From Candidatus Spongiisociaceae bacterium (GTDB taxonomy: Bacteria > Actinomycetota > Acidimicrobiia > Spongiisociales > Spongiisociaceae), in NCBI GenBank assembly GCA_965262915.1, contig OZ253564.1, positions 736,001-800,000 of the forward strand: a stretch of 64,000 bases of DNA. Direction: 5' to 3'. The stretch's first letter is position 1. Each line of letters begins with the position of its first letter. Made by a program: the position numbers and the translations under genes. The notes beneath the pieces were generated by a model. It was not told the DNA's origin, searched no databases, and saw only the letters and a program-made list of their open reading frames with translations. This document shows positions 1,799 through 30,575 of this stretch, in pieces.

Positions 1799-3019
1799 TC
1801 AAGCTGCGGCTCGGTCGATGGTGGTTCGGTGTGCCCATGCGGTGTGTTCGTTGTAGGGGGTTTGGTGTTTGAGGCAGCCGTGGAGGATGCCGACGAGTCG
1901 GTTGGCGAGGGCTCGGAGTGCTTGGTGGTGGAGGTCGTCGGCTGCTCGGCGTTTGTCGTAGAAGGCTCGGGCTCCTGGACTGTTCTTTAGGGAACAGAAC
2001 GCCCATTGGTCCAGGGCGTTGGGGAGACGCCGGTTACGGACCTGGCGAGCCAGGACAGCGTGCTTGCGGCCTGACGCCACTGTGATGGGCGACGTGCCGG
2101 CGTAGTTCGTGGGGGACTTGGCGCTGGTGTAACGGTCGGGGTCGTCCCCGAACTCACCGAGCGCCCGGGCGCCGAGCACAGTACCGAGTCCTGGCTGAGA
2201 CAGGTAGATGTCGGCGTCCGGGTGTTCTCTAAAACGGGTCTCGAGGGTTGCTTGGAGGTCTGCGATCTGGCGGTTGGTTTCCACAATGAGTTTCACCAGT
2301 GCCCCAACAGTCGCCCCGAAGGCGTCCGCGACCGGCCCCGGCGCGGTGAGATGGCGGGTACGGAGACCTTTCTGTATGCGGCGGGCAACCTTGTCGAGGT
2401 TGCGTCGCCGTCCGCCCCTCTGTAGCGCTGCTCGGATCTGGGGCAGTGTCAGGCGGGCGCCCAGGATTGGGGTGGGTGCCCGACCGAGTATGGCCACAGC
2501 GTCGCGATGGGCCAGGTCATCGAAGGTTTCCAGCGCTGCGGGATAGTACTCGCGCAGGGCGTTGCGGACTTGGTTGGTGTGACGCGTCCGAGCCCAGATC
2601 AGGTTCTGATGCGTTCTGGCCATGATCTTGATCGCGTCTGATTCGGGGCTGTCACCGGCCACCGAACGATGGTTGTGACGGTCGGTGCGTACCAAATCAG
2701 CTAACACCTTGGCATCACCGCGGTCTGATTTCGCTCCGCCCAGGCTGTGACGGTCCCGGTAGCGGGACACAGCCCTAGGATTGATCGCATACACCAAATA
2801 GCCCGCTGCGATGAGCGCACCCACCCACAGCCCACGATCGGTCTCGATCCCTACCACCACCTCAGCTGCATCCGATGCGTGTTCGGCGACCAACTGGTGG
2901 AAGCGGGCTATACCTTGGATCCCTTCCGGGAGACGGGCGAAACCCAGCCGGGTCCCATCCTCGTCCATCAGATACACATCATGGTGGCCCTCAGCCCAGT
3001 CGTTACCCACAAATATCAT
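1799..3019 (-). CDS. IS110 family transposase (bridge recombinase)
   Basis: DEDD motifs GNDWAE..HD, GIET, KSDRGDA. C-terminal YAGTSPITVASG, typical of the Transposase_20 domain. Confidence 0.95.
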   Translation of the reverse strand: MIFVGNDWAEGHHDVYLMDEDGTRLGFARLPEGIQGIARFHQLVAEHASDAAEVVVGIETDRGLWVGALIAAGYLVYAINPRAVSRYRDRHSLGGAKSDRGDAKVLADLVRTDRHNHRSVAGDSPESDAIKIMARTHQNLIWARTRHTNQVRNALREYYPAALETFDDLAHRDAVAILGRAPTPILGARLTLPQIRAALQRGGRRRNLDKVARRIQKGLRTRHLTAPGPVADAFGATVGALVKLIVETNRQIADLQATLETRFREHPDADIYLSQPGLGTVLGARALGEFGDDPDRYTSAKSPTNYAGTSPITVASGRKHAVLARQVRNRRLPNALDQWAFCSLKNSPGARAFYDKRRAADDLHHQALRALANRLVGILHGCLKHQTPYNEHTAWAHRTTIDRAAA

Positions 3020-3039
3020 CCCTTCCTCCTTCAACGGGG

Positions 3040-11308: not shown

Positions 11309-11633
11309 CCCGTCGGCCTTAGCCCAAGAGCCCGCGCAGAACCCCGCGTCAATCGGCGTCCGCGACTACAACCCCTTACTAATTATCATTGCTGCAATTA
11401 CAGTTCTTGACCCCTATTCGCAATCAAGATGCTCGAATGTTTCTCTCGAATTGCCCATGTGCGCATCCCCGGCCTGAACGTACCTGGCGGCGGGGAGCTA
11501 CCCGATACAGCATCGGTCGGACGGTACCCGATGTACGCCTATACAACCGGCCTGCACTACCCTTCCCCCGATGAGGTACGGGCCGCCTTCGGTGGCCAGT
11601 GTCGGTGTCGAGGGATCGGATGAAGAGGCCGGA

Positions 11634-13742
11634 ATGGGCCGGATCATGACAGGAATCTGCAGGCGTTGGAGCGCGGTGTTGGCCATGGTGATGGTCGCTC
11701 CGTTGCTGGCCCTGGCATCGGGCCCGGCCGTGGCCGTCGACGGGAAAGCCGACAACCTGGCCTCCTACACGGCATGCGTGGCTGACGCGATCGCCTCGGC
11801 GGGCTTCGTCGACACGCTGGGGCACTTCGCCGAGGAGGCGATCGACTGCCTGGGGTACTACGGGATCACCTTGGGCACCACGCCGGAACGGTTCTCGCCC
11901 AACCAGCCGATCACCCGATGGCAGATGGCCCTGTTCCTGGTCCGGGCGGCGGTGCCGGCCGGGGTCGAGCTGCCGGAGCCTTCCGATCAGGGTTTCGAGG
12001 ATCTGGATCGCATGGCGCCCTTCATCCGGGATGCGATCAACCAGGTGGCGGCTATGGGTATCACGCGGGGGACGTCGCCCACCACCTTCTCCCCGACGTT
12101 GCGCATGGACCGCCGTTCCATGGCCTTGTTCATCTACCGCTTCCTCCGCATGGCCCCGCCGGGACCCGGCGGAGCCGACGCCAGCCTGATCATCCCCGAC
12201 GACACCGTGTTCGAGGACCTGAGCGGTCAGTCGGAGGACGCCGTGACCGCCATCCGGGTCATATACGAGATGGGGGTCACCACCGGCACCACCGCCACCA
12301 CCTTCTCGCCCAACCGGAGGGTGACCCGGGCACAGATGGCATTGTTCTTCACGAGGGCCTTGGCCCACACCAATGCCCGTCCCGTCGGGGTGACCATCCA
12401 GAGCGACGCGGACCTGGTCTCCGCCGGGGACACGCTCGATGTCCACATCTCCATACGGAACAAGTCCTTCGGTACCCGGGCCGGGGCGCTGGTCGATGTT
12501 TTCTCCACCCCTGCGGATGACCCCTACTCGTCGTTCGGCCCGGACGGGGCCTGCCTGCTGGGGGTCGAGGTGGCCTTCGGGGGCCGGGTGTGCATGATCG
12601 ACCGGTCCGACCAGCGTCTCAACGAGTCCGGCAACCTGCTCGTGATCCTCGAGCCGACCGACAACATGCTGCTGTGGGCCTGGGCGGGTTCGGTGGAAGA
12701 GGAGTTCCGGGTCAACAGCACCACGTCCGGATCTATCGATATCCAGGTCCTCAAGCCGGCCGCGGCCGTGAGGGTCCGCGACGATATGAGGCTTACGGCC
12801 ACCAGATTGAAGCTGGGCGACACGGTGGAGGTGGCGTTCCAGCTGGTGGACGACGACGGCAGGCCCGTCAGCGAGGCCGGTGTCGGGATCCAGATCGTGA
12901 CCACCTACGAGACGAACGGGGTCACCGACCGGACGAAGATCGCCACCTACCGGACCGACAGCGAGGGACTGGTGTTGGTTCCCTTCCGGGCGACGGATCC
13001 CGACAGAGCAGCGAGCAACGACTCGGTGACCCTGGACATCGACGTGGTGACGCAGGCGCTCGGGGTGGTGGACCAGACCACGCTGGGTGTGGTCGCGGAC
13101 GACGCCGACGACCGGGACGACGATGTGTTCACCTGGTCCGAGGAAGCCGCGGTGGCCTCCACGCTCAGGGTGAGGCAGTCGGTCGCCTATCACGAGATAC
13201 CCGAGTCGGGTCCCGGTCCGGTCCAGTTGGTGCGGGCCATCCTCACCGACCAGTACGGCGATCAGGTGACCGACGCCCGGATTGACTTCTCGTCGGACGA
13301 CCTGCTCGGCTTGGGAACGGGTCCGGTGAGCAAGAACACCGACAGTTCCGGTGTGGCTGCGTTGCGCTACCGGCGGGACGTCTCGACACCCTCGTCCGAG
13401 CTCATCTCCGCCGAGACCTCCGACGGCAACGTGGACGCCCGGCCCATCTACCACTACTGGGCGGAACCCCAGCCCGACAGGAGCTCGGCCCTGGGGATCC
13501 CTGTCCTGTTGGGCGATGTGCGCAACAACGTGATCCTGTACGACGCCTTCTCGCCCAAGCTGCTCCGCTACGACGCCAACGACCGCTTCGCCATCCGAGA
13601 CATAGTCGTCACCATGTCCGCCTTCGAGGAAGCCTTGGCCTCCGGCGACTACAAGCGCCTCAGCTACAGCCGCTACTCCACCGAGCCCGGGAAGACCAGC
13701 TCCTTCGAGTTGACCAATACCAGGATCTTCGACGAGGCGTGA
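11634..13742 (+). CDS. SLH-domain surface protein (three N-terminal SLH repeats, Ig-like regions)
   Basis: Signal peptide. FSPNQPITRWQMALFL, FSPTLRMDRRSMALF, FSPNRRVTRAQMALF. Start codon is uncertain. Confidence 0.9.
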   Translation: MGRIMTGICRRWSAVLAMVMVAPLLALASGPAVAVDGKADNLASYTACVADAIASAGFVDTLGHFAEEAIDCLGYYGITLGTTPERFSPNQPITRWQMALFLVRAAVPAGVELPEPSDQGFEDLDRMAPFIRDAINQVAAMGITRGTSPTTFSPTLRMDRRSMALFIYRFLRMAPPGPGGADASLIIPDDTVFEDLSGQSEDAVTAIRVIYEMGVTTGTTATTFSPNRRVTRAQMALFFTRALAHTNARPVGVTIQSDADLVSAGDTLDVHISIRNKSFGTRAGALVDVFSTPADDPYSSFGPDGACLLGVEVAFGGRVCMIDRSDQRLNESGNLLVILEPTDNMLLWAWAGSVEEEFRVNSTTSGSIDIQVLKPAAAVRVRDDMRLTATRLKLGDTVEVAFQLVDDDGRPVSEAGVGIQIVTTYETNGVTDRTKIATYRTDSEGLVLVPFRATDPDRAASNDSVTLDIDVVTQALGVVDQTTLGVVADDADDRDDDVFTWSEEAAVASTLRVRQSVAYHEIPESGPGPVQLVRAILTDQYGDQVTDARIDFSSDDLLGLGTGPVSKNTDSSGVAALRYRRDVSTPSSELISAETSDGNVDARPIYHYWAEPQPDRSSALGIPVLLGDVRNNVILYDAFSPKLLRYDANDRFAIRDIVVTMSAFEEALASGDYKRLSYSRYSTEPGKTSSFELTNTRIFDEA

Positions 13743-13746
13743 TCGT

Positions 13747-13786
13747 GTCAGGTGTCAGGTGTCAGGAGTCAGGTGTCAGGTGCTAG
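13747..13786. repeat. Heptamer TCAGGTG array directly after a stop codon
   Basis: gtcaggtgtcaggtgtcaggagtcaggtgtcaggtgctag. Confidence 0.9.
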
Positions 13787-13851
13787 TGAAGGGTATAGAA
13801 CTCTAACAACTGTTAGTCTCCATTATTGACACTGACCACTGACCACGGATG

Positions 13852-14958
13852 TCACTCCAGCTTGTCGAGCAGCCTTTCGAGCCGGCTCACGCTGAAACCG
13901 GACGGGCTATTGCCTACCCGGTTGCCGTCCTTGTCGAGCAGCCAGACCTGGGAGTTACGGGATCCATAGTGCTCATGGACGGTGTCGGACTCGTCCCACA
14001 GATTGGTGAACGTCAGACCCTTGGAGTTCACGAAACTCTCTGCGGCACTGAGGGAGTTGTAATCCTTGGGGTTGATGCCTATCACGGTGACTCTGTGAGC
14101 GTTGTCTCGAGCAAACTGCTCGACTTCCGGGGCTTCTCCCCGGCAGTACGGTCACCAGGAAGCCCAGAACCAGAACAGCACCGCCTTGTCGCGCGTGAAG
14201 AGGGACCGGAGGTTCACGGTCTCGCCGCTGGAGATGTCGGTGAGGTCGACATCGGGAACGTCGGCGCTGAGTTCGGTCATCGCGGGTTCGGTCATCTGCT
14301 CCTTCTGTTTGAGCAGTGCCCGGTGGAGGAAGGTGGCCATCTGGGCTCGGGTGACGGAGTCGTCGGGGCAGTAGCTCAGGGGGTCGGTCTTGCATCCGGT
14401 CGTGATACCCGCCGCGGCAAGGGCGTCGATGTTGGCTTCGTGGGTGTTGCCTGCGGTGTCGGTGAACCCGGCCGGGGAGGCGCTTTCGAGGTCGAAGGCG
14501 TGGACGAAGAAGGTGGCCATCTGGGCTCGGGTGACGGAGTCGTCGGGGCAGTAGCGGAGGGGGCCGGTCTTGCATCCGGCGGTTATGTCGCGGTCGGCGA
14601 GTTCCTCCGCGTAGGGGGACCACCAGTCGGAGGCGTCCACATCGGCGAACCGGGAGGTGGTGGAGGTGGTGACCTCGCCGCCGAGGACCCGGATGAGCCA
14701 CACCGCCATCACCCAGCGGTCGATCGGATCGTCGGGGCAGAAGAGGCCGTCCCCGCATTCGGTGTCGTCGAACACGCCCATCTCGGCGAGGGCTTTGATA
14801 GCCGGCTCGTGGGTGCCGCCCGAACTCACATCGGAGAACCCGTCGGCGCCGGCGGCCGGTAGCGAGGTGAGCATCGAAGCCAGCAACGCCGCGATGACCA
14901 GTGCCGATAGGGCGCCCCGGCGGCACCGGAGGGATGCGGTGCGCTCATATGCCGTCAT
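13852..14958 (-). CDS. SLH-anchored TlpA/ResA-like redoxin, probable selenoprotein (FWASW-U-PYC)
   Basis: TGA at 14152-14154 occupies the first Cys position of CxxC. The frame continues as PYCRGEAPEVEQFARDN..LLDKDG..LLDKLE* to 13852. Confidence 0.88.
14107..14143 (-). promoter_or_regulatory. Candidate SECIS hairpins
   Basis: CCGGGG-AGAAG-CCCCGG, then TCGAGCA-GTT-TGCTCGA, immediately 3' of the UGA. Confidence 0.6.
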
Positions 14959-15126
14959 GATGCTTCTCCCATTCGGGCCAGGCCTTCATGTTAGTTCTCC
15001 GGATGGCCCTGCTGTCGGGTATCGCCCACGGTCCTCACTCCCGGAGGAGAAATGGGCTAGCCGTGTGGACGATGGCGGAGGGTTTCGGACCGGTTCCAGG
15101 CGACCCTCCACATGGGCAGTTGGTCG

Positions 15127-16251
15127 TCACGAGGCGGATGCCTCCAACGCCGCCAGCAACCTCTCGATCAGGCCTGCGTCGAAGAAGGGAGGACCGCTCA
15201 CCGGGTTGCCTTGCGCGTCGAGGATGCGGTACGTCACCCGGTCGCCTTGCTCGTTGAGCAGCCGGAACTCGGACCAGTACCTGATTCCGTAGTGGTTTAT
15301 TAGCCCAGGGGGACGGTCCCGCAGGATGGGGAAGGTTAGCCCGTGGGTGGTCGCGAAGTCGCCGACCTCTTCGAAAGTGCCCAGGTAGTTGACTGCTATG
15401 ACCCTGACCCTGTCTGAGTTGTCACGAGCGAACTGCTCGACGGCCGGCGCATGCGCCTGGCACTTCGGTCAGAAAGGTGATAGGAACCACAGGAGGAGAG
15501 GCTTGTCGCCGGTTACGAACGAGCGGAAGTTCACGGTCTCGCCGGTGGAGATGTCGACCAGGTCTACGTCGGGGACGTCGTCGGAGATGGTGACCGGTTC
15601 GGGTTCGCCCATCTGTTCCTTCTGTGCGAGCAGGGCCCGGTGGAGGAAGGTGGCCATCTGGGCGCGGGTGACGGGCTGGTCGGGGCAGTAGCGGAGCGGA
15701 TCGGTCTCGCATCCCGCCGTGATGCCGGCTTCGGCCAAGGCGTCGATGTTGGCCCCATGCGTGTTGCCCTCGGTGTCGGTGAACCCGGCCGGGGAGGCGC
15801 TTTCGAGGTCGAAGGCGTGGACGAAGAAGGTGGCCATCTGGGCTCGGGTGACCGAGTCGTCGGGGCAGTAGCGGAGCGGGTCGGTCTCGCACCCGGTGGT
15901 GATGTCGCGGTCGGCGAGTTCCTCCGCGTAGGGCGACCACCATTCGGAGGCGTCCACGTCGGCGAAGCGAGACGTACCGGTGGTGGTGGGCTCGTCGCCC
16001 AGGACCCGGATGAGCCATACGGCCATCACCCACCGGTCGATGGGATCGTCGGGGCAGAAGAGGCCGTCCCCGCATTCGGTGTCCGCGAATACGCCCCGGT
16101 CGGCGAGGTCGTTGATGGCCGGCTCGTGTACTCCACCGGAACCGACGTCGGAGAAACCCTCCGCGCCGGCGGCCGGGAGTGGGGTGGCAGCAGCCGCGGC
16201 CAGCGTCGCCGCGACCAGCGCAGCCCGCCAGCGTCTGCGGCGCAGGGTCAC
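15127..16251 (-). CDS. SLH-anchored TlpA-like redoxin, probable selenoprotein (FLSPF-U-PKC)
   Basis: In-frame TGA at 15469-15471. Continues PKCQAHAPAVEQFARDNSDRVRVIAVN..LEASAS* to 15127. Confidence 0.85.
15421..15460 (-). promoter_or_regulatory. Candidate SECIS hairpin
   Basis: CGAGC-AGTTC-GCTCG at the same distance from the UGA as in the two paralogs. Confidence 0.55.
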
Positions 16252-16318
16252 GCCCTATCCGCTGGAGAAGGCGGCACTGGGGTTTCCACGGCGGTGCTCC
16301 TCCCTAGGGGACCGGATG

Positions 16319-17374
16319 TCACAGTAGCTCGTCCAGGAGGCGTTCGACCAGGGTCTTGTGGAAAGGCGCGGTGCGGTCCGTCAGCCGGTTGCCGAACGGA
16401 TCCAGTAGCAGGAAGTCCGATGTGCTCTCCATGTTGTAGTGGTCCCACGCCTCGCGGGACTCGCTCCAGAGCGCGGTGAAGGTGACGCCCTTGGAGGCCA
16501 CGAATTCCTGGGCGATTTCCAGCGTGCCGATGCCCCCGACGCCGACGACGGTCAGTCGGTGGGAGTTGTCTCGAGCGAACTGCTCGATGGCCGGGGCCTC
16601 TTCCCGGCACGTCTCTCAGAAGGGGGACCAGAACCAGAACAGGAGCGGTTTCTCCCCCTTCACCACCGACCGCAGGCTGACCAATGCACCCGTAGCCGCG
16701 TCGAACATGTCGACGTTGGGAACATCGTCGGAGATCTCCAAGGCGATGGGCGCCTCGGTCGTGGTCGGAGCGGCTGTGGTGGTCGTGGCCGGGGCTTCGG
16801 TGGTGGTGGTCGGTGCCTCGGTGGTTTCGGTGGTCGTGGGTACGGTTTCGGCTGCCGCCGGGTCCTCGGCCGGGGTGGTGTCCGCGACCGTGATCTCGGT
16901 CGTAGCCGGGGTGGTTTCGGTGACCGCCGCGCTGGTCACGGTGGTCGCCTGGGTGGTGCCAGATGCGGTGGAGGCGGTAGCGGTCTCTGCTGTCTCCTCC
17001 CCGGCGGTGGTTGTGGTGGTGTCCGCGACCGCGTTCGTAGTGGTCTGTCCGGATGCCTTCTCCGACGGGGGAGTGGTCTCCTCGACGCTGGGCCGGGTGG
17101 TCGGTACGGTTGACGTGGCGACCGTCTCCGTCGCGACGGCTGCCGGCGGCGAGGCGGTGGTTGCTGAGGCGGTGGTTTCCGGAAGTTCTACGCCTACCGA
17201 GCTATCCCCGCTGCCGCACCCCGCGATCAGCAGGGCCGTCGACACCACAGCGATGACCGATCCGGCCGATCGACGGTCGAGTCGTCGGGTGTGTGACTGA
17301 CGTACTTCGTTCGACCCCAAGACCCGGGCCATTGGGCCTGGCGCGCTGTTACGTTCGCGACCCTTTCGTCCCAT
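16319..17374 (-). CDS. Lipoprotein with Thr/Ala-rich stalk and C-terminal TlpA-like redoxin, probable selenoprotein (FWSPF-U-ETC)
   Basis: Lipobox LLIAGC. TGA at 16616-16618 continues as ETCREEAPAIEQFARDN..LLDELL* to 16319. Start codon is uncertain. Confidence 0.85.
16571..16607 (-). promoter_or_regulatory. Candidate SECIS hairpins
   Basis: CCGGG-AAGAGGC-CCCGG, then TCGAGC-AGTTC-GCTCGA. Confidence 0.6.
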
Positions 17375-17729
17375 GGCACAACGGCGCGGGCCATTGCGAA
17401 CCTGACGGGCACCGCTTGCCACCCACCTTCTTGCTGTCACCGTCTAAGCATAAAGGCTGTCGAGAGTTCGGGATCGGCTGTTGAGTCCGCTGTTCACGAG
17501 GCACCGACAATCGGGAGCGACGCGTCGTTACTTACTGCGGTTCAATCGCCATCACATCAACACCTCGAGCAAGTATCACGCCCCTGTTAGGCGAGACCGC
17601 GGCCGGTCGCCAACTGGGAGGCGCACCTCGTGAGAGCCGGCCCGGAGGGTGGCAGGCGACTCACGAGCCAGCCCAACCAATGCCCTACCGGACGCTTAGG
17701 ACCTCCAAGCCACAGCGAGCAGTCTCCAC

Positions 17730-20700
17730 CTAGAGGTTGGCGGCTGAGTCACCCACAGTTGACGTTCCGGGGTCAGATCCACCTGCGTCTTGGGTTATCG
17801 TGATCGTGGTGTGGGGTGTGGTGGATACCACGGTGATGGTGTAGCCACGGATGGTGACACTTTCTCCATCGGTCAGGATTGGGAACCCTTTGATGTGTCC
17901 GGTACCTGGATCACCAGCCACCTTCACGGGGAGTTCGCCTGTGGCGATGGCGGCGTCCACCGTGTAGATGAGTACACCTTCTGCGGGTAGTGCAGGGAGG
18001 AGAGTCTCGTTTCCCTCAGGGGTTCGGTATTCTGTACCTGTGTCATAACCCAGGTTACGTCTGTTTTCGATGACAATCACTTCAGTGTCAGACAAGGGAA
18101 CAGCCACCATGCCTATCCCTGCCCCGGGGTCAGCGACGGGACTCAGGGTGACGGTCACCTCAGATTCGGTCACACAGAGAATCTGGGCGGTGTCGAGCCA
18201 GCCCAGCTGCCAGCGGCTCCATGCCAGCATTTCAAGAGCCTCCAGCGAGTTTGCGTAGCCGGTGGATCGCGATCCGTCCGGATGTTGTCATACATGAGCA
18301 ACTCGGGGGTCACCTTGGGAAGATACCGGGAAGTTGACCCGCATGCCCATGAGACCGAATCTGGCGTGAGCCCAGGTCCGGCCACGGGGTGTGTACTCCG
18401 CTCGGTGGCGGCGTAAGTCGTAGGGCCCGAGGTCCAGTAGCCCGAGATTGTGGACCAGTTCGTGGGCGCCTACCCGTCCTTGGTGGTACGTCGGACCTGA
18501 TGGGAATGCGTTCATGCGGAGAGTTGAGACAGTGCCTTCATCGGTCTGGACTGATCCAAGAGCGTTGCCTCCACTGAAGTGGGCGCTGGGCATGAGAACT
18601 ATCAGGGCGTCGATGCCCGTGAAGTCGAAGTCGGGATCCGCCAACCGTACAGCTTCCCTATCTACCTCATGTCTCAGTTCAGGGATTCCATAAGGGCTGG
18701 TGTAGATGTGGTCCCGGTAGTTGAACTCTGCCCTTAGCCACCGGTCCAGAGACACGAACTCCAAGTCGAGCTTGCCGTAGCTGGAGGTCTCCAGATACTT
18801 CTCCATGTAGCGAAGCACCGATTCTGCCTCATGTGCCACCGATGTGGTTGCTTGAGCGTCTGGGAAGTCCACGAAGAGCACCGCTACCCGTACAGTCCCG
18901 GTTGAGGGCACCGCCCGGCCGGGCAGGGGGAACCCGGCTGTCGTACCCTCCACGCCCTTCGGACGGCACATCCGGGGGTCCGGACCCTGGGTCCATGGAG
19001 CTTGTTGCACGGCAGCCGGAAACGAGACAACCGGGTCTCGACCCCAGCAGGTGACGGTTCCGTTGGTGCGGATTCCACACGAGTGGGCTCCTTCGGCGGT
19101 AACTGCTGTGAACTCCCCTTGGGGGGCGTCGGTCTGACTATCGGAGTTTCCTCCCCAGCAGACGACTGTCCAGTCGTTGCGGACTCCACACGAATGCTCA
19201 AACCCGGCAGCAACCGAGCTGAACTGCCCCTCGGGAGCGTCCGCCTGATTCTCCCAGTTGCCACCCCAGCAGGCAACCGTCCCATCGGTGCGGACTCCAC
19301 ACGAATGCCCGTATCCCGCGGACACCGTGCTGAACTGCCCCTCGGGAGCGTCTGCCCGACCGGCCCAGTTCGAACCCCAGCAGGTGACCGTCCCATCGGT
19401 GCGGACTCCACACGAATGCCCGTATCCGGCAGCAACCGTGCTGAATTGCCCCTCGGGAGCGTCCGCCCGACCGGCCCAGTTCGAACCCCAGCAGGCAACC
19501 GTCCCATCGGTGCGGACTCCACACGAATGCCCGTATCCGGCAGCAACCGTGCTGAATTGCCCCTCGGGAGCGTCCGCCCGGCCCCACCAGTTCTCTCCCC
19601 AGCAGGCAGCCGTCCCATCGGTGCGGACCCCACACGAATGAGCGAACCCGACGGTCAAACCTAGAAACGTTCCGTCTGGTGGGTCGACACGCCCCCCTCC
19701 TCCATAACCCCAGCAGGCAACGGTCCCATCGGCACGGACTCCACACGAATGCCCACCCCCCGTCGAAACAGCGCTGAACTTTCCTTGCGGAGCCTCCGGT
19801 CGACCATCGGTGTTCTCTCCCCAGCAGGCCACCGTCCCATCGCTGCGAACCCCACACGAATGGAACTCTCCCGCCGATACGGCACTGAACTTTCCTTCGG
19901 GTGGGTCAGATCGACCATCGGTGTTCTCTCCCCAGCAGGCCACCGTCCCATCGCTGCGAACCGCACATGAATGGGTTTCCCCCGCCGATACAGCGCTGAA
20001 CTTCCCCCAGGGAGCGTCTGCCCGGCCCCACCAGTTCTCTCCCCAGCAGGCCACCGTCCCATCGCTGCGAACTCCACACGAATACCCACTCCCGGCGGAC
20101 ACCGCTGCGAACTTGCCCTCGGGAGCGTCAACCCGACCGTCCGAGTTCGCACCCCAGCAGACAACCGTCCAATCGGTACGGATCCCACACGAATGAGCGT
20201 CCCCCGCCGATACAGCGCTGAACCTCCCCTCGGGGGCGTCCACCTGATCCCCCCAGTTCGCACCCCAGCAGACAACCGTCCCCTCAGTACGGATCCCACA
20301 CGAATACCCATACCCGGCGGACACCGCGCTGAACTCCCCCTCCGGAGCGTCAGCCTGATCCCCCCAGTTCGTACCCCAGCAGACAACCGTCCAATCGGTA
20401 CGGATCCCACACGAATGCCCATTCCCGGCGGACACCGCTCTGAACTCTCCCTGCGGCGCGGCAGCCTGACCGTCCCAGTTCCCACCCCAGCAGACAACCG
20501 TCCAATCAGTACGGATCCCACACGAAAAACCATTGCCACTGGAAACCGTTGCGAACCCCCCATCCTGGGGTGGTTGGTCAGGCCGAACCGAACCGAACCG
20601 CAGAGCACGGCTCAAGAACGTTGCCATCTGACCACGAGTGGTTTCCCGCCGGGGACAGTACCGAGCCGGGCTAGTCGAACACCCCGCCGTCACACCCACA

Positions 20701-21253
20701 GCCGCCAGGACATCGATATTCGACGCGTGAACATTGTCTTCGATATCCACGAACCCACTCGACGAACCCTCACCAAGACCGAAAGCACGAACCAGAAACG
20801 ACGCCATCTGATCCCGCGTGACAGTCTCCGATGGACAGAACCGCAACGGCCCGGTAGCGCAACCCGCAGTAATACCCAACTCAGCAAGACGCTCCACATG
20901 AGGCACCCACCACTCGCCCGCATCCACATCCGCAAACCGTGACACCCCCACCTCATCCGGGTCGCCCCCATCGATCACCCGAACCAGCCACACCGCCATA
21001 ACCCACCGCCGGACCGGGTCAGTCGGACAGAACACCCCCGGGCGGCACTCCGTCCCCGCCAGAACACCCTCAGCCGCCAAAGCCTCCACAGAACCCCGAT
21101 GAGGCCCAGCCTCATCAATATCCGAAAACCCCGACCAGAAGCAGCCGCAGCAGGCACAGAAACCCCCACCCCCAACACAACCCCAACAACAGCCGCCACA
21201 ACCCCCGACACCACCCACCGACTTCCAGCAACAAAACGAGCCCACACCATCAC
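17730..21253 (-). pseudogene. SLH + RCC1-repeat + M6-like metallopeptidase surface protein, disrupted
   Basis: Signal peptide lies in a different frame (frameshift ~21135). About 14 RCC1-like repeats. VAVLFVDFPDA and HELVHNLGL zinc motif. In-frame TGA at 18288-18290 precedes EMLAWSRWQLGW. Confidence 0.8.
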
Positions 21254-21867
21254 CGCGTAAACCGTACCGAAGATCGTGAGCAGCGTCCATGAGTCGCCCC
21301 CGTGCCTCCCTCGGAGATGAACCGAATCGCGTTCGTCGGAGAGTGTGATGGTGCCCGGGTTTGTTACCGCACCGGGTCTACCGGAGTGAAGTTCCCCCGG
21401 TGGCCGGACACTCCCGCAAAGTGGTGTCGGTTCTTGTTGGTGTATGGGGGGCCTTGAGTGGCTCTTCGGAAGTGAGCTGCGTCTATGACGAGCGTATGTT
21501 CTTCAGTCAGTTGTTGGGTGAGCCAGTGTTGATATCGAGTAGCGAGATGGTGGGCGTCGTGGAGGCCTCGTTTATCGACAAGACAGCCAACCACACCTTG
21601 CGGCGGGACGATGAAGCAAGAAGGAGTCGGGCCTGGTACGAGGTCATTGCGGTGCCTCCCACATGCCGCTCAGGGATCTCTCGGGTCCCTACCAGTGGCC
21701 TGGATCATGGGGAGCAGGAACCAGCCACATGGTCCGGGGCAGCCGCGTTCGGTGGGGTGTCAGTGGGTCCGGCGCCGCAGAGCATCGCCGCGTACGCCAT
21801 CCGGACCAGCGGGAGGTGGCGGATTGCTGCTCCGCGACCTACCGGGACAGGTATAGGGTGCTTCATC

Positions 21868-23271
21868 ATGCGACCGGTGCTTACGGCTGAGCAGTCCCGC
21901 CGCCAGGATGCCGTCGCCCGGGTGGATCCGCGCACCTTGCTGGACCGGGCCGGCCTAGCAGTGGCGATGCAGGCGGTGAGGTTGGGAGCCGGCTACGGGT
22001 CCCGGGTGGCGGTGCTGGCCGGTCCGGGCAACAACGGGGGGGACGGTTACGTGGCCGGCCGCTACCTGGCCGGGCGGGGGGCGATGGTCGATGTCTACCC
22101 GCTCACCGCACCCAGGACCGGTCCTGCCCGGTGGGCGTACCGGCTGGCGCAGAACGAAGGGGTGGCAGTCCGGGAATGGCACGACCCGCGACCGGCTGAC
22201 CTGGTGATCGACGCCCTGTTCGGAGCAGGCTTCCGGGGAACGTTGCCCGACCTCTCCGCCTGGCAGGGAATCCCGGCATGTCTGGCCGTCGACGTTCCTT
22301 CCGGGCTGGACGCCACCACCGGTGAGGCAGGAGACGGCGTCCTGTCCGCCGATGCGACCGTGACGTTCCACGGATACCGGGTGGGTCACCTGGTCGGTTC
22401 CGGTCCCGACGTGTGCGGCGAGGTGACGGTGGCGGACATCGGTCTGCCCGACGTGGAGCCCGAGATGTGGCTCTGCGAAGAGGTGGACGCCCCACTCCCG
22501 GTGCGGGCCCGGACCGCCCACAAGTGGTCGGCCGGATCGGTACTCGTGGTCGGCGGTTCCGACGGTCTCGACGGAGCGGCCACCCTGACCGCCCGGGCGG
22601 CGTTGCGGGCCGGGGCGGGCGCGGTGATGATCGCCTGCCCGCCGACGGTCGAGGAGAAGGTGCGCTCGCCGGAGATCATGACCAGGGCCATCGGCACATC
22701 CCGGTCGTTGTCGCTTGGCGATGTCCCCCAATTACTCGAACTAGCCGGCCGCTTCGACGTGGTGATCATCGGACCCGGCCTCGGTTCGGCCGATGATCTG
22801 GGCGGTTTCGTCCGCGGGGTTCTCCGAGGCTGGAACGGTCCTATGGTGGCCGACGCTGACGCCCTCAACGCCCTGGACGGGCCGGAGGACCTCGTGAGGG
22901 AAGGTGAGACGATCATCACCCCCCACGCCGGCGAGTTCTTTCGCCTGACCGGACGGACCGCGGCCTACCAGGAGGCCATGCGGCTCGCCGAAAACTCGGG
23001 CGTGACCGTCCTGCTGAAGGGCGCCCCAACCTTCGTCATGGGAGCGCAGCGCTGGGTGGTCAACTCCGGAGGGCCCGAGCTGGCCACCATCGGGACCGGA
23101 GACGTGCTGGCAGGAATGATCGGAGCCTTCCGGGCCGTAGGTCTGGACGGTCCCACGGCGGCCCGCTCCGCGGCGTACTGGCACGGGCGGGCCGCCGCCG
23201 ACCTGCAACGCACCCGCACGGTGACCGCCGACCAACTGGTCGATCACCTCGCGCTGACCACACGCCGCTGA
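21868..23271 (+). CDS. nnr: Bifunctional NAD(P)H-hydrate epimerase/dehydratase
   Basis: GPGNNGGDG, DALFGAG, DVPSG, IGPGLG, DADALN, TPHAGEF, LATIGTGDVLAG. Confidence 0.95.
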   Translation: MRPVLTAEQSRRQDAVARVDPRTLLDRAGLAVAMQAVRLGAGYGSRVAVLAGPGNNGGDGYVAGRYLAGRGAMVDVYPLTAPRTGPARWAYRLAQNEGVAVREWHDPRPADLVIDALFGAGFRGTLPDLSAWQGIPACLAVDVPSGLDATTGEAGDGVLSADATVTFHGYRVGHLVGSGPDVCGEVTVADIGLPDVEPEMWLCEEVDAPLPVRARTAHKWSAGSVLVVGGSDGLDGAATLTARAALRAGAGAVMIACPPTVEEKVRSPEIMTRAIGTSRSLSLGDVPQLLELAGRFDVVIIGPGLGSADDLGGFVRGVLRGWNGPMVADADALNALDGPEDLVREGETIITPHAGEFFRLTGRTAAYQEAMRLAENSGVTVLLKGAPTFVMGAQRWVVNSGGPELATIGTGDVLAGMIGAFRAVGLDGPTAARSAAYWHGRAAADLQRTRTVTADQLVDHLALTTRR

Positions 23272-27499: not shown

Positions 27500-27870
27500 G
27501 ACCGAAGCGGCATCCCTTTGACGAGCTGTTGGGCTCCGACGCCTCGAACTTGTGCTGCTTGACATCGATCAGGTCCAACCGTCCCGACCAGCACTGCTGC
27601 GTTCTGCCCGCCGGGCCCGGGTCGTGGGTGTTCGGGGCAAGGGAAGAACCCAGCGCACAGTGTTCCTGTCCGTCGACGCCCGCCGTGCCCTGGCCGGCTA
27701 CCTGGAGGTGGAACGACCGTTCGACGCCACCGACGAGTCCACCGCGTTGTTCCTGTCCGCTGTTTCGGTGAGCAGCCGCCCCCCGACGGGCGGCTCTCCG
27801 GGCGCAGTGTCAACACCGTCCTCGAACGTATCGGCCGGCTCCACGACGCGGAACACACCGAACCCGTACG
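27500..27870 (+). pseudogene. Tyrosine recombinase remnant
   Basis: ELVLLDIDQV, VRGKGRTQRTVFL, ALFLS and, in a shifted frame, GRLSGRSVNTVL. Confidence 0.7.
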
Positions 27871-27872
27871 GT

Positions 27873-29033
27873 TCAACCTACGCGTGGTGGAGGGAACACA
27901 ACCCGGAAGCTGGGCAGTTCCCCGCGGATCGGAACCTGTCCCGTTATGACCTGTTCAAGATGTTCACCCTGGTCCGGAGCGAGGATCCCCGCTGGGCGGC
28001 GGTGGACACCAGGGTGGGCCGGGGTGTCATCTGTCGTTTCGACCGGACGACCAAGTCTTTTTACAAGCGCTGCAGCAGGGAAGGGACCAAGCCCGGATAT
28101 CCCCGTTTCAAGCCCCGACACCGGTGGAGGAGCATCGAGATAGTGAACGCCGGGGCCCAGATGCTCGTACCGCCGGGTCCCGGGGGTCGATGGTGGCGTC
28201 TGCGGGTCAAGGGAGTCCCCGCAGCCAGGTTCTGCGATGGCAACGGACGGCTGGCCGCCGCTCTCGATGCTGGCACGGTGGTGGAGCTGTGGGTGGTGCG
28301 CACCCCGTTGCGGGTGGAGTTGCATGTGGTGGTCGGACACGACGCGGATACCACTGTGGTGTCCGCTCCTCTGAACCCGGTGGGGATAGACAAGGGCCTG
28401 TCGACGCGGATGGCACTGTCCGACGGGCGGTACGTACCGGCGCGGACCATCGACAATCAGGTTGTCCGCCGGTACCAGCGTCGCCTGGCGCGAGCACAAC
28501 GGGGATCTCGGTCCCGGGCCAAGAAGCGGGCTGCTGTGGCCAGGGTCCGGCGCAGGGAAACCGAGAGAGCCCGGGCGGCGGACTTCCGCCTGGCCCACGA
28601 CCTCGTTACTTCCTTCGACGGCGTCGCCGTCGAGGACCTCAACATCGCGGGACTGCTCCGCTCCCGCAGATACTCCAAGAAGATGTCGGAACAGCGGTGG
28701 GGTACCTTCGACCTCGTACTGGGACACAAAGCCGAGAAAGCTGGTGTCCCGTATGTGAAGGTGAGCCCTTCCCATACCAGCACAGATTGCTCCCGATGCG
28801 GGCATCGCCAGCCGATGCCGCTCGGAACCAGAGTCTATCGGTGCGGGAGTTGCCGTCTCAGCCTGTGCAGGGACGTCAACGCCGCCAGGAACATATGCGC
28901 CCGGGCCTTCCCACAGGTCCGGGGTCGGGAGGGGCCACCACCTGACGCGGCGCGCTATACAAACAACCACCGTGAGACCGACTCGCCCCCTAGGGCAGGG
29001 ACGCAAGTGGTCGCCGCAGAACAGTATGCCTGA
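27873..29033 (+). CDS. tnpB: TnpB RNA-guided endonuclease (IS200/IS605-type), N-terminus missing
   Basis: PGYPRFK, VGIDKG (RuvC-I), VAVEDL (RuvC-II), TSTDCSRCG..CGSC zinc finger, RDVNAARNI (RuvC-III). Confidence 0.88.
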   Translation, partial: STYAWWREHNPEAGQFPADRNLSRYDLFKMFTLVRSEDPRWAAVDTRVGRGVICRFDRTTKSFYKRCSREGTKPGYPRFKPRHRWRSIEIVNAGAQMLVPPGPGGRWWRLRVKGVPAARFCDGNGRLAAALDAGTVVELWVVRTPLRVELHVVVGHDADTTVVSAPLNPVGIDKGLSTRMALSDGRYVPARTIDNQVVRRYQRRLARAQRGSRSRAKKRAAVARVRRRETERARAADFRLAHDLVTSFDGVAVEDLNIAGLLRSRRYSKKMSEQRWGTFDLVLGHKAEKAGVPYVKVSPSHTSTDCSRCGHRQPMPLGTRVYRCGSCRLSLCRDVNAARNICARAFPQVRGREGPPPDAARYTNNHRETDSPPRAGTQVVAAEQYA

Positions 29034-29494: not shown

Positions 29495-30575
29495 TTATGG
29501 CAGGGGTGTGGAGTCGTCCTGCAGATACGTTGCCCATGCTGCCATGAGTTGGCGGCGTCGGTCGAATAGATCTGTGCGTAGGTATGCGGCTTCGACCTGG
29601 TTGCGGTTCTGGTGGGCCAGTGCAGCCTCGGCGACTGATCTGGGTGTGTCTGTGCATTCCTCTACCCAGACGCGAAAACTCGAACGGAAGCCGTGGGGCA
29701 CGCAGGAGATCCCGAGCCGGTGGAGTATTGCCCCGACGGTACTCTTGCCGATCTGACCGCCGCGCGCGCCTGGGAAGATCAGCCCGCTGCTGTTTCGGTA
29801 CTGGTGAGCTTCGTGCAGGATTGCAATGGCGCGTGTCGCCAGTGGCACACGGTGTTCCCGGCTCTTTTTCGTCCTCTTGGCCGGAATCGTCCAAGTCGCC
29901 TTCTCGAAGTCTATTTCGAGCCATTGCGCGAGCCTGGCTTCTGTGGGTCTCGTTGCGGTGAGTATCTGGTATTCGAGTAGCAGGATGCTGGTCGGGTAGG
30001 CACTCGACCAGCGTACCTGCTGGAGGGCTGCCGCGACCTGATCATGGGGCAGCGCCGGGTGATGCCGAGACCCACTGCTGTGCTTGGGCAGCGCGGCGGT
30101 GATGGCCTCCCCGGCCGGGTTGTCGGGCCGATGCCCCGCGGCTATCGCCCACAGCATTATCGCCGAGATTTCCCGTTTCACTGTCTGAGCAGTGGGGTTC
30201 TTTTCGTGCCATATTGGAGTTAGGAGGCCCATGACGTCAGCGGTGGTGATTCGGTCTACCCGTTTGCTGCCCAGCGTCGGGTACGCGTAGTTCTTGAGGG
30301 TGGATCTCCACCTGTGTTCCGTCTTGCTACCGGGTTTCCAGCCTTTGGAGTACAGCTGGATAACTTTCTCGGCCGCCTCAGCGAAGGTCGGCACCCCGCC
30401 GCCCCGGGGATCTTGTCCCTGTTCTGCCAGCCGACGATTGTTGAATGCCTTTCGTCGGGCTTCGGAGAGTTTGACCAATGGATAGCTTCCGAGGCCGATG
30501 TTGGTGAGGCGGCCGCCAATCCGGATTCGCTGAATCCACGACTTTCGTACTCCAACGTTTCGCCCATTAGCGTGC
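29495..30575 (-). CDS. P4-like tyrosine integrase with a degraded arm-binding N-terminus
   Basis: KSWIQR..GLGSYP.VKLSEAR, LTATRPTE, HGFRSSFR, LAH, AY.R catalytic motifs. Confidence 0.88.

Follow-up and report, generated by a model that had tools for sequence, protein, structure and literature searches.

Whether an in-frame TGA ends a gene or is read as selenocysteine (Sec, U) is the question raised by three adjacent genes, here termed A, B and C, in a 64,000-nucleotide stretch of the genome of a Candidatus Spongiisociaceae bacterium (class Acidimicrobiia; GenBank GCA_965262915.1, contig OZ253564.1, positions 736,001 to 800,000). This stretch is referred to as the window, and coordinates are given in its own numbering unless a contig is named. 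All three genes appear to stop within the active site of a thioredoxin-like domain. It is very probable, from the sequence evidence set out below, that they encode real, Sec-decoded, exported oxidoreductases of the thioredoxin fold; this judgement does not extend to the direction of the reaction that they would catalyse.

Three genes with an internal TGA

Translated with table 11, the genes give co-oriented open reading frames (ORFs) on the minus strand that end in ...FWFWASW* (14152-14958), ...LLWFLSPF* (15469-16251) and ...FWFWSPF* (16616-17440), the same three endings (FWASW*, FLSPF* and FWSPF*) that an earlier, sequence-only reading of this DNA had picked out. When TGA is re-read as U the frames run on for 99 (A), 113 (B) and 98 (C) codons, close to the 100 or so residues given in that reading, as far as terminal stops at 13852-13854, 15127-15129 and 16319-16321, all of which are TGA. 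The internal codon lies at 14152-14154 in A (U269, motif WASW-U-PYC), at 15469-15471 in B (U261, LSPF-U-PKC) and at 16616-16618 in C (U275, WSPF-U-ETC), and in A it aligns with the first Cys of the CPFC and CPTC motifs of DsbE (PDB 1lu4) and DsbF (3ios) from Mycobacterium tuberculosis (Mtb).

Read in this way, gene A (13855-14958, 368 residues) comprises a signal peptide, three S-layer homology (SLH) modules (approximately 14305-14838) and a Sec-redoxin domain (13855-14280). Gene B (15130-16251, 374 residues) has the same layout, with SLH modules at approximately 15622-16155 and the Sec-redoxin domain at 15130-15597. Gene C (16322-17440) contains a lipobox, LIAG-C (17216-17230, residues 71-75), a 160-residue linker rich in Thr, Ala, Glu and Pro (16736-17215) and a Sec-redoxin domain (16322-16744). 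Its start is uncertain, with options at GTG 17440, ATG 17374 and ATG 17332; the end of the locus at 17374 in the sequence-only reading is one of these three. Matches to the Pfam families AhpC-TSA and Redoxin cross the internal TGA in every case (residues 233-345, 223-346 and 237-341 of A, B and C; E-values from 8.5e-17 to 1.1e-8), scoring 61.7, 43.5 and 35.6 bits for AhpC-TSA (PF00578; gathering cut-off 26) and 55.7, 39.4 and 38.7 bits for Redoxin (PF08534; cut-off 26.6). An open frame after a stop would alone be weak evidence in a genome of 64% G+C; the case for read-through is strong because a domain match spans the TGA and because the arrangement is conserved in relatives.

The anchors named in the sequence-only reading, Cys-rich SLH modules in A and B and a lipoprotein on a Thr-rich stalk in C, are borne out by SLH scores (52.2 bits for A and 48.1 for B, cut-off 20.8), by the lipobox and by the composition of the linker, which is 34% Thr and 81% Thr, Ala, Glu, Pro and Ser together. 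Orthologues of gene C share both lipobox and linker. The N-termini of A and B are basic and then hydrophobic and on motif inspection end in AGA|DG and AGA|EG, respectively. Judged from these signal-peptide and lipobox motifs, the products of all three genes are predicted to be extracytoplasmic. By inspection, each of the three SLH-like modules in A and in B carries one pair of Cys residues (68/74, 129/137 and 189/197 in A). The pattern C-x5-7-C precedes a conserved CP..(V/I)TR..MA motif in the modules at 14305-14838 and 15622-16155 and again at approximately 20600-21130, within a gene at 18291-21290, and these may be disulfide-stapled modules specific to this lineage. The SLH protein encoded at 11571-13742 lacks such Cys pairs.

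Conservation of the TGA and of the codons beyond it

The redoxin domain of A was searched against 41 genomes (its own and others of the genus, family and order), giving 69 matches. Exactly one TGA is present in 44 of these, most of which are 41-64% identical across nearly the whole domain; they lie in 17 genomes, namely all eight of genus g1, all eight of genus g7, and G034. The other 25 matches contain no stop, 24 of them being distant (29-40% identity) and the single close one (G006, 55% identity) a Cys form. Of these 25 rows, six belong to G028 and G039, two unpublished genomes, and no claim here depends on them. A family set of 41 sequences, A, B and C included, was then extracted: the first position of the CxxC motif is TGA in 40 and TGC in one (L038), and 97-113 homologous open codons follow the site in all 41. 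A pattern scan of 185,579 species genomes yielded a further set of 42 loci, nearly all from metagenome-assembled genomes (MAGs) of Acidimicrobiia or Ilumatobacteraceae. TGA stands at the site in 42 of the 44 matches of this MAG set, the two exceptions, a Plantactinospora and a Bacillota record, having Cys. Cys also occupies the UGA position in L038 and in two database proteins, P0006 and P0066, in agreement with the placing of each TGA at the first Cys of a CxxC (U-PYC, U-PKC and U-ETC) in the sequence-only reading.

Selection beyond the UGA was measured in ortholog pairs, as the ratio of nonsynonymous to synonymous substitution rates (dN/dS) from 20 codons past the UGA to the stop. Gene C gives 0.17 and 0.22 against two orthologues, gene A gives 0.33 against its orthologue in G002, and the Cys form L038 gives 0.25 and 0.34 against its two Sec orthologues. 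By this measure the post-UGA region is under purifying selection in five of the six pairs (0.17-0.34); the sixth, gene B, is considered below.

A maximum-likelihood tree built from the 41 domains separates a C-type clade (U-ETC; 14 rows, support 98/91), a B/D-type clade (5 rows, 95/90) and an A-type group that is less well supported (17 rows, 86/76). Both genera, g1 and g7, are represented in the C group and in the A group, and therefore the paralogues predate the genus split, each keeping its TGA. The sequence-only reading had reasoned that three independent nonsense mutations at the same codon would be implausible. This is not the right argument: on the evidence of the tree, the three TGAs are a single ancestral Sec codon kept through duplication and speciation, and not independent events. 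L038 is nested among the Sec sequences (99/91), which suggests a change from Sec to Cys. Contigs from four other studies add little; their pieces span the TGA of gene B with 3-6 differences, and no Sec codon is affected among the 40 differences listed (195 others lie outside that list).

A fourth paralogue in the same genome (L103, G000:C1:2313140-2313553) has the motif WSPY-U-PTC and the same hairpin as described below for A, B and C. Its open frame, of only 169-192 residues, has no signal peptide and little of the SLH part, and may be a remnant.

The window offers a control in the form of another in-frame TGA, at 18288-18290 (minus strand; VAHV-*-QHPDG), in a gene at 17733-21290 that combines SLH modules, RCC1 repeats and an HExxH metalloprotease. 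Among nine homologous matches in relatives and in the same genome, seven have no stop at this position, one (a paralogue from the same genome) has TAG, and one, a fragment, has TGA. This codon looks like an ordinary nonsense mutation, or the mark of a pseudogene, and not like a Sec codon.

A hairpin behind every UGA

Two hairpins, hp1 and hp2, follow each UGA. The second is the candidate SECIS (selenocysteine insertion sequence) element; on the minus strand it occupies 14107-14123 in A (UCGAGCA-GUU-UGCUCGA; -9.2 kcal/mol), 15424-15440 in B (CGAGC-AGUUC-GCUCG) and 16571-16587 in C (UCGAGC-AGUUC-GCUCGA; -8.8 kcal/mol). Its consensus is (U)CGAGC-[A/G]GUU[C/U]-GCUCG(A), with a stem of 5-7 bp and a loop that begins 34 nt past the UGA and reads A-G-U-U-C/U (5 nt), or GUU where an extra A-U pair forms. 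In the 81 UGA sequences compared, none of the 405 cells of the five inner pairs is unpaired. At pair 42-56, 72 sequences have CG and 9 have UA, and pair 45-53 is GC in 80 and AU in one. The covariation score was matched by none of 500 shuffles, and shifting the 3' arm lowers pairing from 97% to 20-43%. The switch from CG to UA couples a synonymous Val change (GTC to GTT) to a replacement of Arg (CGN) by Gln (CAA/CAG) in eight cases out of eight; in a second compensatory change, Glu GAG to GAA is paired with Ala GCT to Val GTT.

The synonymous codons of the hp2 stem are frozen, which shows a constraint on the hairpin at the level of RNA. The stem Ala codon is GCT in 41 of 41 sequences (11% of Ala codons genome-wide), the Glu codon GAG in 41 of 41 (70%), the Gln codon CAG in 35 of 35 (80%) and the Val codon GTC in 20 of 21 (39%); in a control Ala column the counts are GCC 18, GCG 11, GCT 5 and GCA 1. 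The published model of bacterial SECIS (bSECIS) elements specifies 3-9 nt in the loop, 4-16 bp in the stem, a G in the first two loop positions, a spacing of 16-37 nt between UGA and loop and a minimum free energy of at most -7.5 kcal/mol (PMC13188914, legend to Fig. 2). The hairpins of A and C satisfy every constraint given in that legend.

In the whole genome, the motif GAGC[AG]GTT[CTA]GCTC occurs seven times, four of them exactly 30 nt past the TGA of the four paralogues, and the terminal UGAs of A, B and C have no SECIS-type hairpin. The selD gene carries a hairpin, GGCGCAG-GUU-CUGCGCC, at a similar distance past its own UGA. In a second Sec-redoxin subfamily (FWAEW-U-PAC) the hairpin is GACGGG-AGUUG-CCCGUC and follows the UGA at a much shorter distance, its GUU occupying nt 21-23. 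Three unrelated Sec sites in this genome therefore share a loop containing GUU. The FWAEW-U-PAC subfamily consists of lipoproteins with a Thr-rich stalk, encoded at approximately G000:C1:1226462-1226686 (L104) and at 2053545-2053811 (L105) of the same contig.

A scan of 13700-17600 against Rfam gave no match at E <= 1, as is to be expected of a database that covers bacterial SECIS elements poorly. Two other structures were considered and set aside. The G+C-rich hp1, the first hairpin past the UGA (in A at 14127-14143, minus strand; CCGGGG-AGAAG-CCCCGG), is paired in 71% of cells and has a different register in the MAG set; it was rejected as the SECIS element and is treated as an accessory or spacer structure. 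An outer helix between GGUGACC in the UGA region and GGUCACC some 60 nt further on was dropped, as it is absent from C-type genes and can be explained by the codons for W-U-P and V-T.

Selenocysteine machinery and the use of TGA

The window belongs to a genome assembled as a single contig of 5.06 Mb (96% complete), in which the entire Sec machinery named in the sequence-only reading was found, each component above its curated cut-off: tRNA-Sec (77 bits; called SeC(tca) by ARAGORN), selA (372.6 bits), an adjoining selB (333.2 bits, cut-off 242) and selD (390.3 bits; L012, G000:C1:4560939-4561865). The last has an in-frame TGA of its own in SPGAG-U-ACK. SelA is present in 39 of the 41 related genomes, including all 17 with TGA homologues. 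TGA is nevertheless the commonest ordinary stop, ending 1495 of 2449 long ORFs genome-wide, and homologues of A-C terminate with TAG or TAA where these genes have their final TGA; on both counts TGA is not reassigned across the genome.

Fold of the redoxin domain and family architectures

The A domain was modelled with AlphaFold2 (AF2) on 30 family sequences, with a mean predicted local distance difference test score (pLDDT) of 96.2, and U43 of the model stands immediately before a helix at 44-59. The best matches of the model in the PDB are Mtb DsbE (Mpt53, 1lu4) and DsbF (3ios), followed by ResA, StoA, pneumococcal Etrx1/2 and SdbA, with template modelling (TM) scores of 0.77-0.86 to 1lu4, 3ios and ResA. 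By sequence, a profile of the family matches DsbF with an E-value of 1.3e-21 and DsbE with 1e-19. The frame beyond the TGA thus completes a fold of the TlpA/ResA kind, as the sequence-only reading had stated.

Three architectures occur within the family. The first joins three SLH modules to the redoxin and the second is a lipoprotein with a Thr/Pro-rich stalk ahead of it. In the third, found in relatives, RCC1-like repeats with two Cys per blade take the place of the SLH modules (L035:1172-4216, L042:11-1687, L050:138-989 and L053:953-1675); the L035 protein is 1015 residues long, and these fusions contain up to 39 Cys.

Proposed mechanism and points that weigh against it

A, B and C would on this evidence be intact thiol-disulfide oxidoreductases like DsbE, DsbF and ResA, in which selenocysteine would be the attacking residue (U-x-x-C). 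If it acts as bacterial SECIS elements do, hp2 would recruit SelB with GTP and Sec-tRNA(Sec), allowing the UGA to be read as Sec, and the hairpin itself would then be translated as V/I-E-Q-F-A-R. Their sequence motifs suggest that A and B are exported by the signal peptide and held in the cell wall by the three SLH modules, and that C is tethered to the membrane as a lipoprotein, with a long and flexible stalk rich in Thr. A pyruvyl transferase of the type that SLH anchoring requires is encoded in the genome. The U-x-x-C centre may exchange selenenylsulfide and disulfide bonds with Cys-rich envelope proteins, candidate substrates being the Cys-paired SLH modules and the RCC1-like propellers with two Cys per blade. 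Our best guess, held tentatively, is that these enzymes form or shuffle disulfides in surface proteins and need no membrane partner to do so.

A number of observations weigh against parts of this proposal. At the level of the enzyme, the cis-Pro of DsbF, DsbE, ResA and StoA is matched in a profile alignment by a conserved Ser: among the 41 family sequences this position (A-domain residue 110) is Ser in 39 and Pro in two. A conserved cis-Pro, one family-defining feature of TlpA, ResA and DsbE that was looked for here, is lacking on this alignment, and with Ser in its place the enzyme may not behave like DsbE or ResA. Pro is retained at the position in L051, from another family of the order. Assignment of the residue in the MAG set by pairwise tblastn gave mixed results from alignments too imprecise to be used.

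At the level of decoding, binding of hp2 by SelB is itself inferred from analogy. The isolated hairpin of gene B, at -6.8 kcal/mol, is slightly weaker than the bSECIS limit of -7.5 kcal/mol (PMC13188914, same legend). The Cys form L038, whose DNA was examined, retains the hairpin, so that its presence is not strictly tied to UGA; a recent change from Sec to Cys would explain this. The patterns of the MAG scan included EAPEVEQF, which means that the amino-acid motif in that set was selected for, and the choice of codon was not. Gene B has a post-UGA dN/dS of 0.72 against its G002 orthologue. Medians over all pairs are 0.41 before and 0.58 after the UGA, values that are uninformative since synonymous sites are saturated, and for this reason only ortholog pairs were used above.

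At the level of context, no conserved redox partner was found near the redoxins in a survey of six related loci (45 of 73 ORFs scanned), and the gene neighbourhood is conserved only inside genus g1. No VKOR was found in the genome. The sole CcdA gene (a DsbD_TM match at C1:2675464-2676030) lies 1.9 Mb away and stands alone between unrelated genes. Linkage to CcdA/DsbD or to cytochrome c maturation was likewise not found, the redoxin genes of this genome being far from DsbD_TM and the six related loci having none.

Alternative explanations

The rival that survives best accepts Sec decoding and differs in the direction of electron flow. It holds that these proteins are reductases, with CcdA passing cytoplasmic electrons to lipoprotein C and C in turn reducing the wall-anchored forms or other targets, either in cytochrome c maturation, as for ResA and CcmG, or in the repair of oxidised surface proteins, as for Etrx1/2 with MsrAB2. 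Most characterised extracytoplasmic members of the fold (ResA, CcmG, TlpA and Etrx) are reductases, and the best fold matches of A include ResA and Etrx1/2. The presence of one CcdA gene with no VKOR found would also fit, as would the pairing of the two gene types: every one of the 16 genomes of g1 and g7 has both a lipoprotein-type and an SLH-type gene, and the two are adjacent in eight of eight in g1 and two of eight in g7. That CcdA gene is, however, near no redoxin gene, wall-anchored forms are not easily within reach of a membrane donor, and Mtb DsbE and DsbF, to which the family is closest in sequence, are reportedly oxidants. A reductase role is therefore possible but doubtful. A role in scavenging peroxide is unlikely.

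It has also to be considered that the UGA is a selenium-dependent switch, whereby low selenium gives a short SLH or stalk protein with a structural role and sufficient selenium adds the redox domain. In bacteria release factor 2 and the insertion of Sec are in competition, and the short products would still be exported and anchored, as the signal peptide and SLH modules precede the UGA. Nothing in the sequence suggests a function for the short form, however, and Cys forms of the same architecture (P0006 and P0066) show that the full-length protein is selected; such a switch is improbable.

Read-through by some other route, in which a suppressor or near-cognate tRNA inserts Trp, Cys or Arg, or TGA is recoded throughout the lineage, is very improbable. 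In its favour, the identity of the inserted residue is here a prediction, and the existence of Cys forms indicates that Cys would be functional at the site. Against this, TGA is the commonest stop and also ends these same three genes, the genome has all of selABCD and its SelD is a selenoprotein too, the UGA is found only at the redox-active Cys position, and every UGA is followed by a structure-constrained hairpin that fits the bSECIS model. ARAGORN found no tRNA in the window, suppressor tRNAs not having been searched for genome-wide.

Decay, with the TGAs as real stops, the SLH or stalk parts as short products and the downstream codons as a dying remnant, would account for public gene calls that stop at the TGA, for open frames such as are common past stops at 64% G+C, for the high dN/dS of gene B and for the company of one real nonsense TGA (18288-18290), but it is extremely improbable given that, at 33-64% identity, 40 of 41 family sequences, from 17 genomes, and 42 MAG matches retain both the TGA and 97-113 codons beyond it, that paralogue clades older than the genus split keep both, that Pfam domains span the TGA in a read-through domain modelled at pLDDT 96, and that dN/dS is low in five of the six ortholog pairs.

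Returning to Sec-decoded redoxins that form or shuffle disulfides, a broader picture can be drawn, though as a whole it is quite unlikely: the paralogues would make up a selenium-based redox system that spans the envelope without a quinone-linked partner. The stalked lipoprotein and the SLH forms would each act at a depth of their own within the wall, forming, shuffling or protecting disulfides, with the Cys-paired SLH modules and the RCC1-like propellers, some of which are fused to a Sec-redoxin in relatives, as substrates. Sec together with Ser for cis-Pro would allow direct recycling by O2 or H2O2, coupling removal of peroxide to oxidative folding. The SECIS hairpin would have fixed five residues, E-Q-F-A-R, of the helix at the active site, so that a signal in RNA would dictate protein sequence throughout a bacterial class.

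Relation to known proteins

A, B and C are of a known kind, namely UxxC thioredoxin-fold selenoproteins. The existence of such proteins in bacteria, taken as established in the sequence-only reading, is confirmed by a review (2026) of prokaryotic selenoproteomes, which, in the part available, lists a PF00578-type Prx-like thiol:disulfide oxidoreductase (UxxC/UxxU), a Thiol:disulfide interchange protein (UxxC) and a UGC-containing TlpA family (PMC13188914). As far as they are described in the accessible parts of PMC13188914 and PMC1794560, these families resemble A-C in having Sec at the first redox-motif position of a TlpA/Prx-like fold and a decoding hairpin within the coding region, and PF00578 is the best Pfam match of A-C. 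They are defined mainly in Deltaproteobacteria and Clostridia, unlike A-C, and those parts make no mention of an SLH wall anchor, a lipoprotein stalk or a fusion to RCC1 repeats; the likeness is one of description. That exported, S-layer-anchored Sec redoxins should be unusual, as the earlier reading held, is an overstatement: the anchoring itself is supported, but the kind is catalogued (PMC13188914, in the part available) and the family is widespread in Acidimicrobiia.

The closest single proteins, Mtb DsbE (1LU4) and DsbF (3IOS), share with A-C an actinobacterial origin, export, the thioredoxin fold and the active-site context WFW-x-x-W-[C/U]-P-x-C; DsbF, a lipoprotein, is in this respect like gene C. 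They differ in having Cys and not Sec, in lacking an SLH anchor or Thr-rich stalk, in keeping the cis-Pro and in lacking the EQFAR/hairpin segment. Bacillus subtilis ResA and StoA, Streptococcus pneumoniae Etrx1/2 and Streptococcus gordonii SdbA are likewise extracytoplasmic CxxC domains of the same fold tethered to membrane or lipid. Unlike A-C they are Cys enzymes without an SLH wall anchor, and the partners of proteins of this type are known (CcdA, MsrAB2), whereas none is evident for A-C.

No NCBIfam model scores above its cut-off for any of the three proteins. The two models that combine a ResA-like fold with Sec in the active-site motif are far below it, NF041054 (ResA-like WAxxUGC) at 34 against 300 bits and NF053656 (TUGYCR) at 22.2 against 100 bits; the motif of A-C is W-U-P/E-x-C and not UGC. 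No description of an SLH-anchored or lipoprotein Sec-redoxin family from Acidimicrobiia was found in the literature outside subscription journals. The newer points here are the anchoring to the wall, the set of paralogues, the Ser in place of cis-Pro and the well-supported SECIS.

Representation in databases

The read-through A protein was searched against 5.8 billion proteins. Of the best 120 matches examined, 106 are 208-314 residues long and match SLH alone in Pfam (one has no Pfam match); where named, they are called S-layer homology domain-containing protein or hypothetical protein, and two short entries that were inspected end exactly at ...FWFWAEW. A redoxin domain is present in only two of the 120, P0006 and P0066, both of which have Cys at the site and the same architecture. 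The mis-annotation foreseen in the sequence-only reading is thus real in that the genes are truncated, but they are not stored as split genes; only the N-terminal SLH part is kept. A family of surface enzymes of Acidimicrobiia is consequently held without its catalytic half, as short SLH proteins, and therefore both the selenoproteome of these bacteria, sponge symbionts included, and the redox capacity of their envelope are undercounted. A DNA signature by which such genes can be found and repaired is TGA, then 30 nt, then GAGCAGTTYGCTC. The 81 sequences also provide a natural example of a SECIS element that constrains the choice of codons and even of amino acids, and wall-anchored selenoenzymes raise the question of why Sec should be favoured outside the cytoplasm with no obvious reductant.

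Surroundings of the genes

The surroundings of A-C within the window form an island of surface proteins that are anchored by SLH modules and bear Big_1, RCC1_2 and cadherin domains, among which mobile genes are interspersed. The latter include an IS110-family transposase (1799-3034, minus strand), a TnpB-like gene (OrfB_IS605 with a Cas12f1-like TNB; 27552-29033, plus strand) and a phage-type integrase (29495-30478, minus strand). Beside the redoxin cluster lies a gene for NAD(P)HX repair (YjeF_N with Carb_kinase; 21361-23271, plus strand), which also stands beside the redoxins in G002 and G005 of genus g1 and is not found there in g7. At the six related loci the recurring neighbours are SLH proteins, mobile elements and, in g1 only, this YjeF gene. 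Elsewhere the genome encodes a CsaB-type pyruvyl transferase (PS_pyruv_trans, 93.5 bits).

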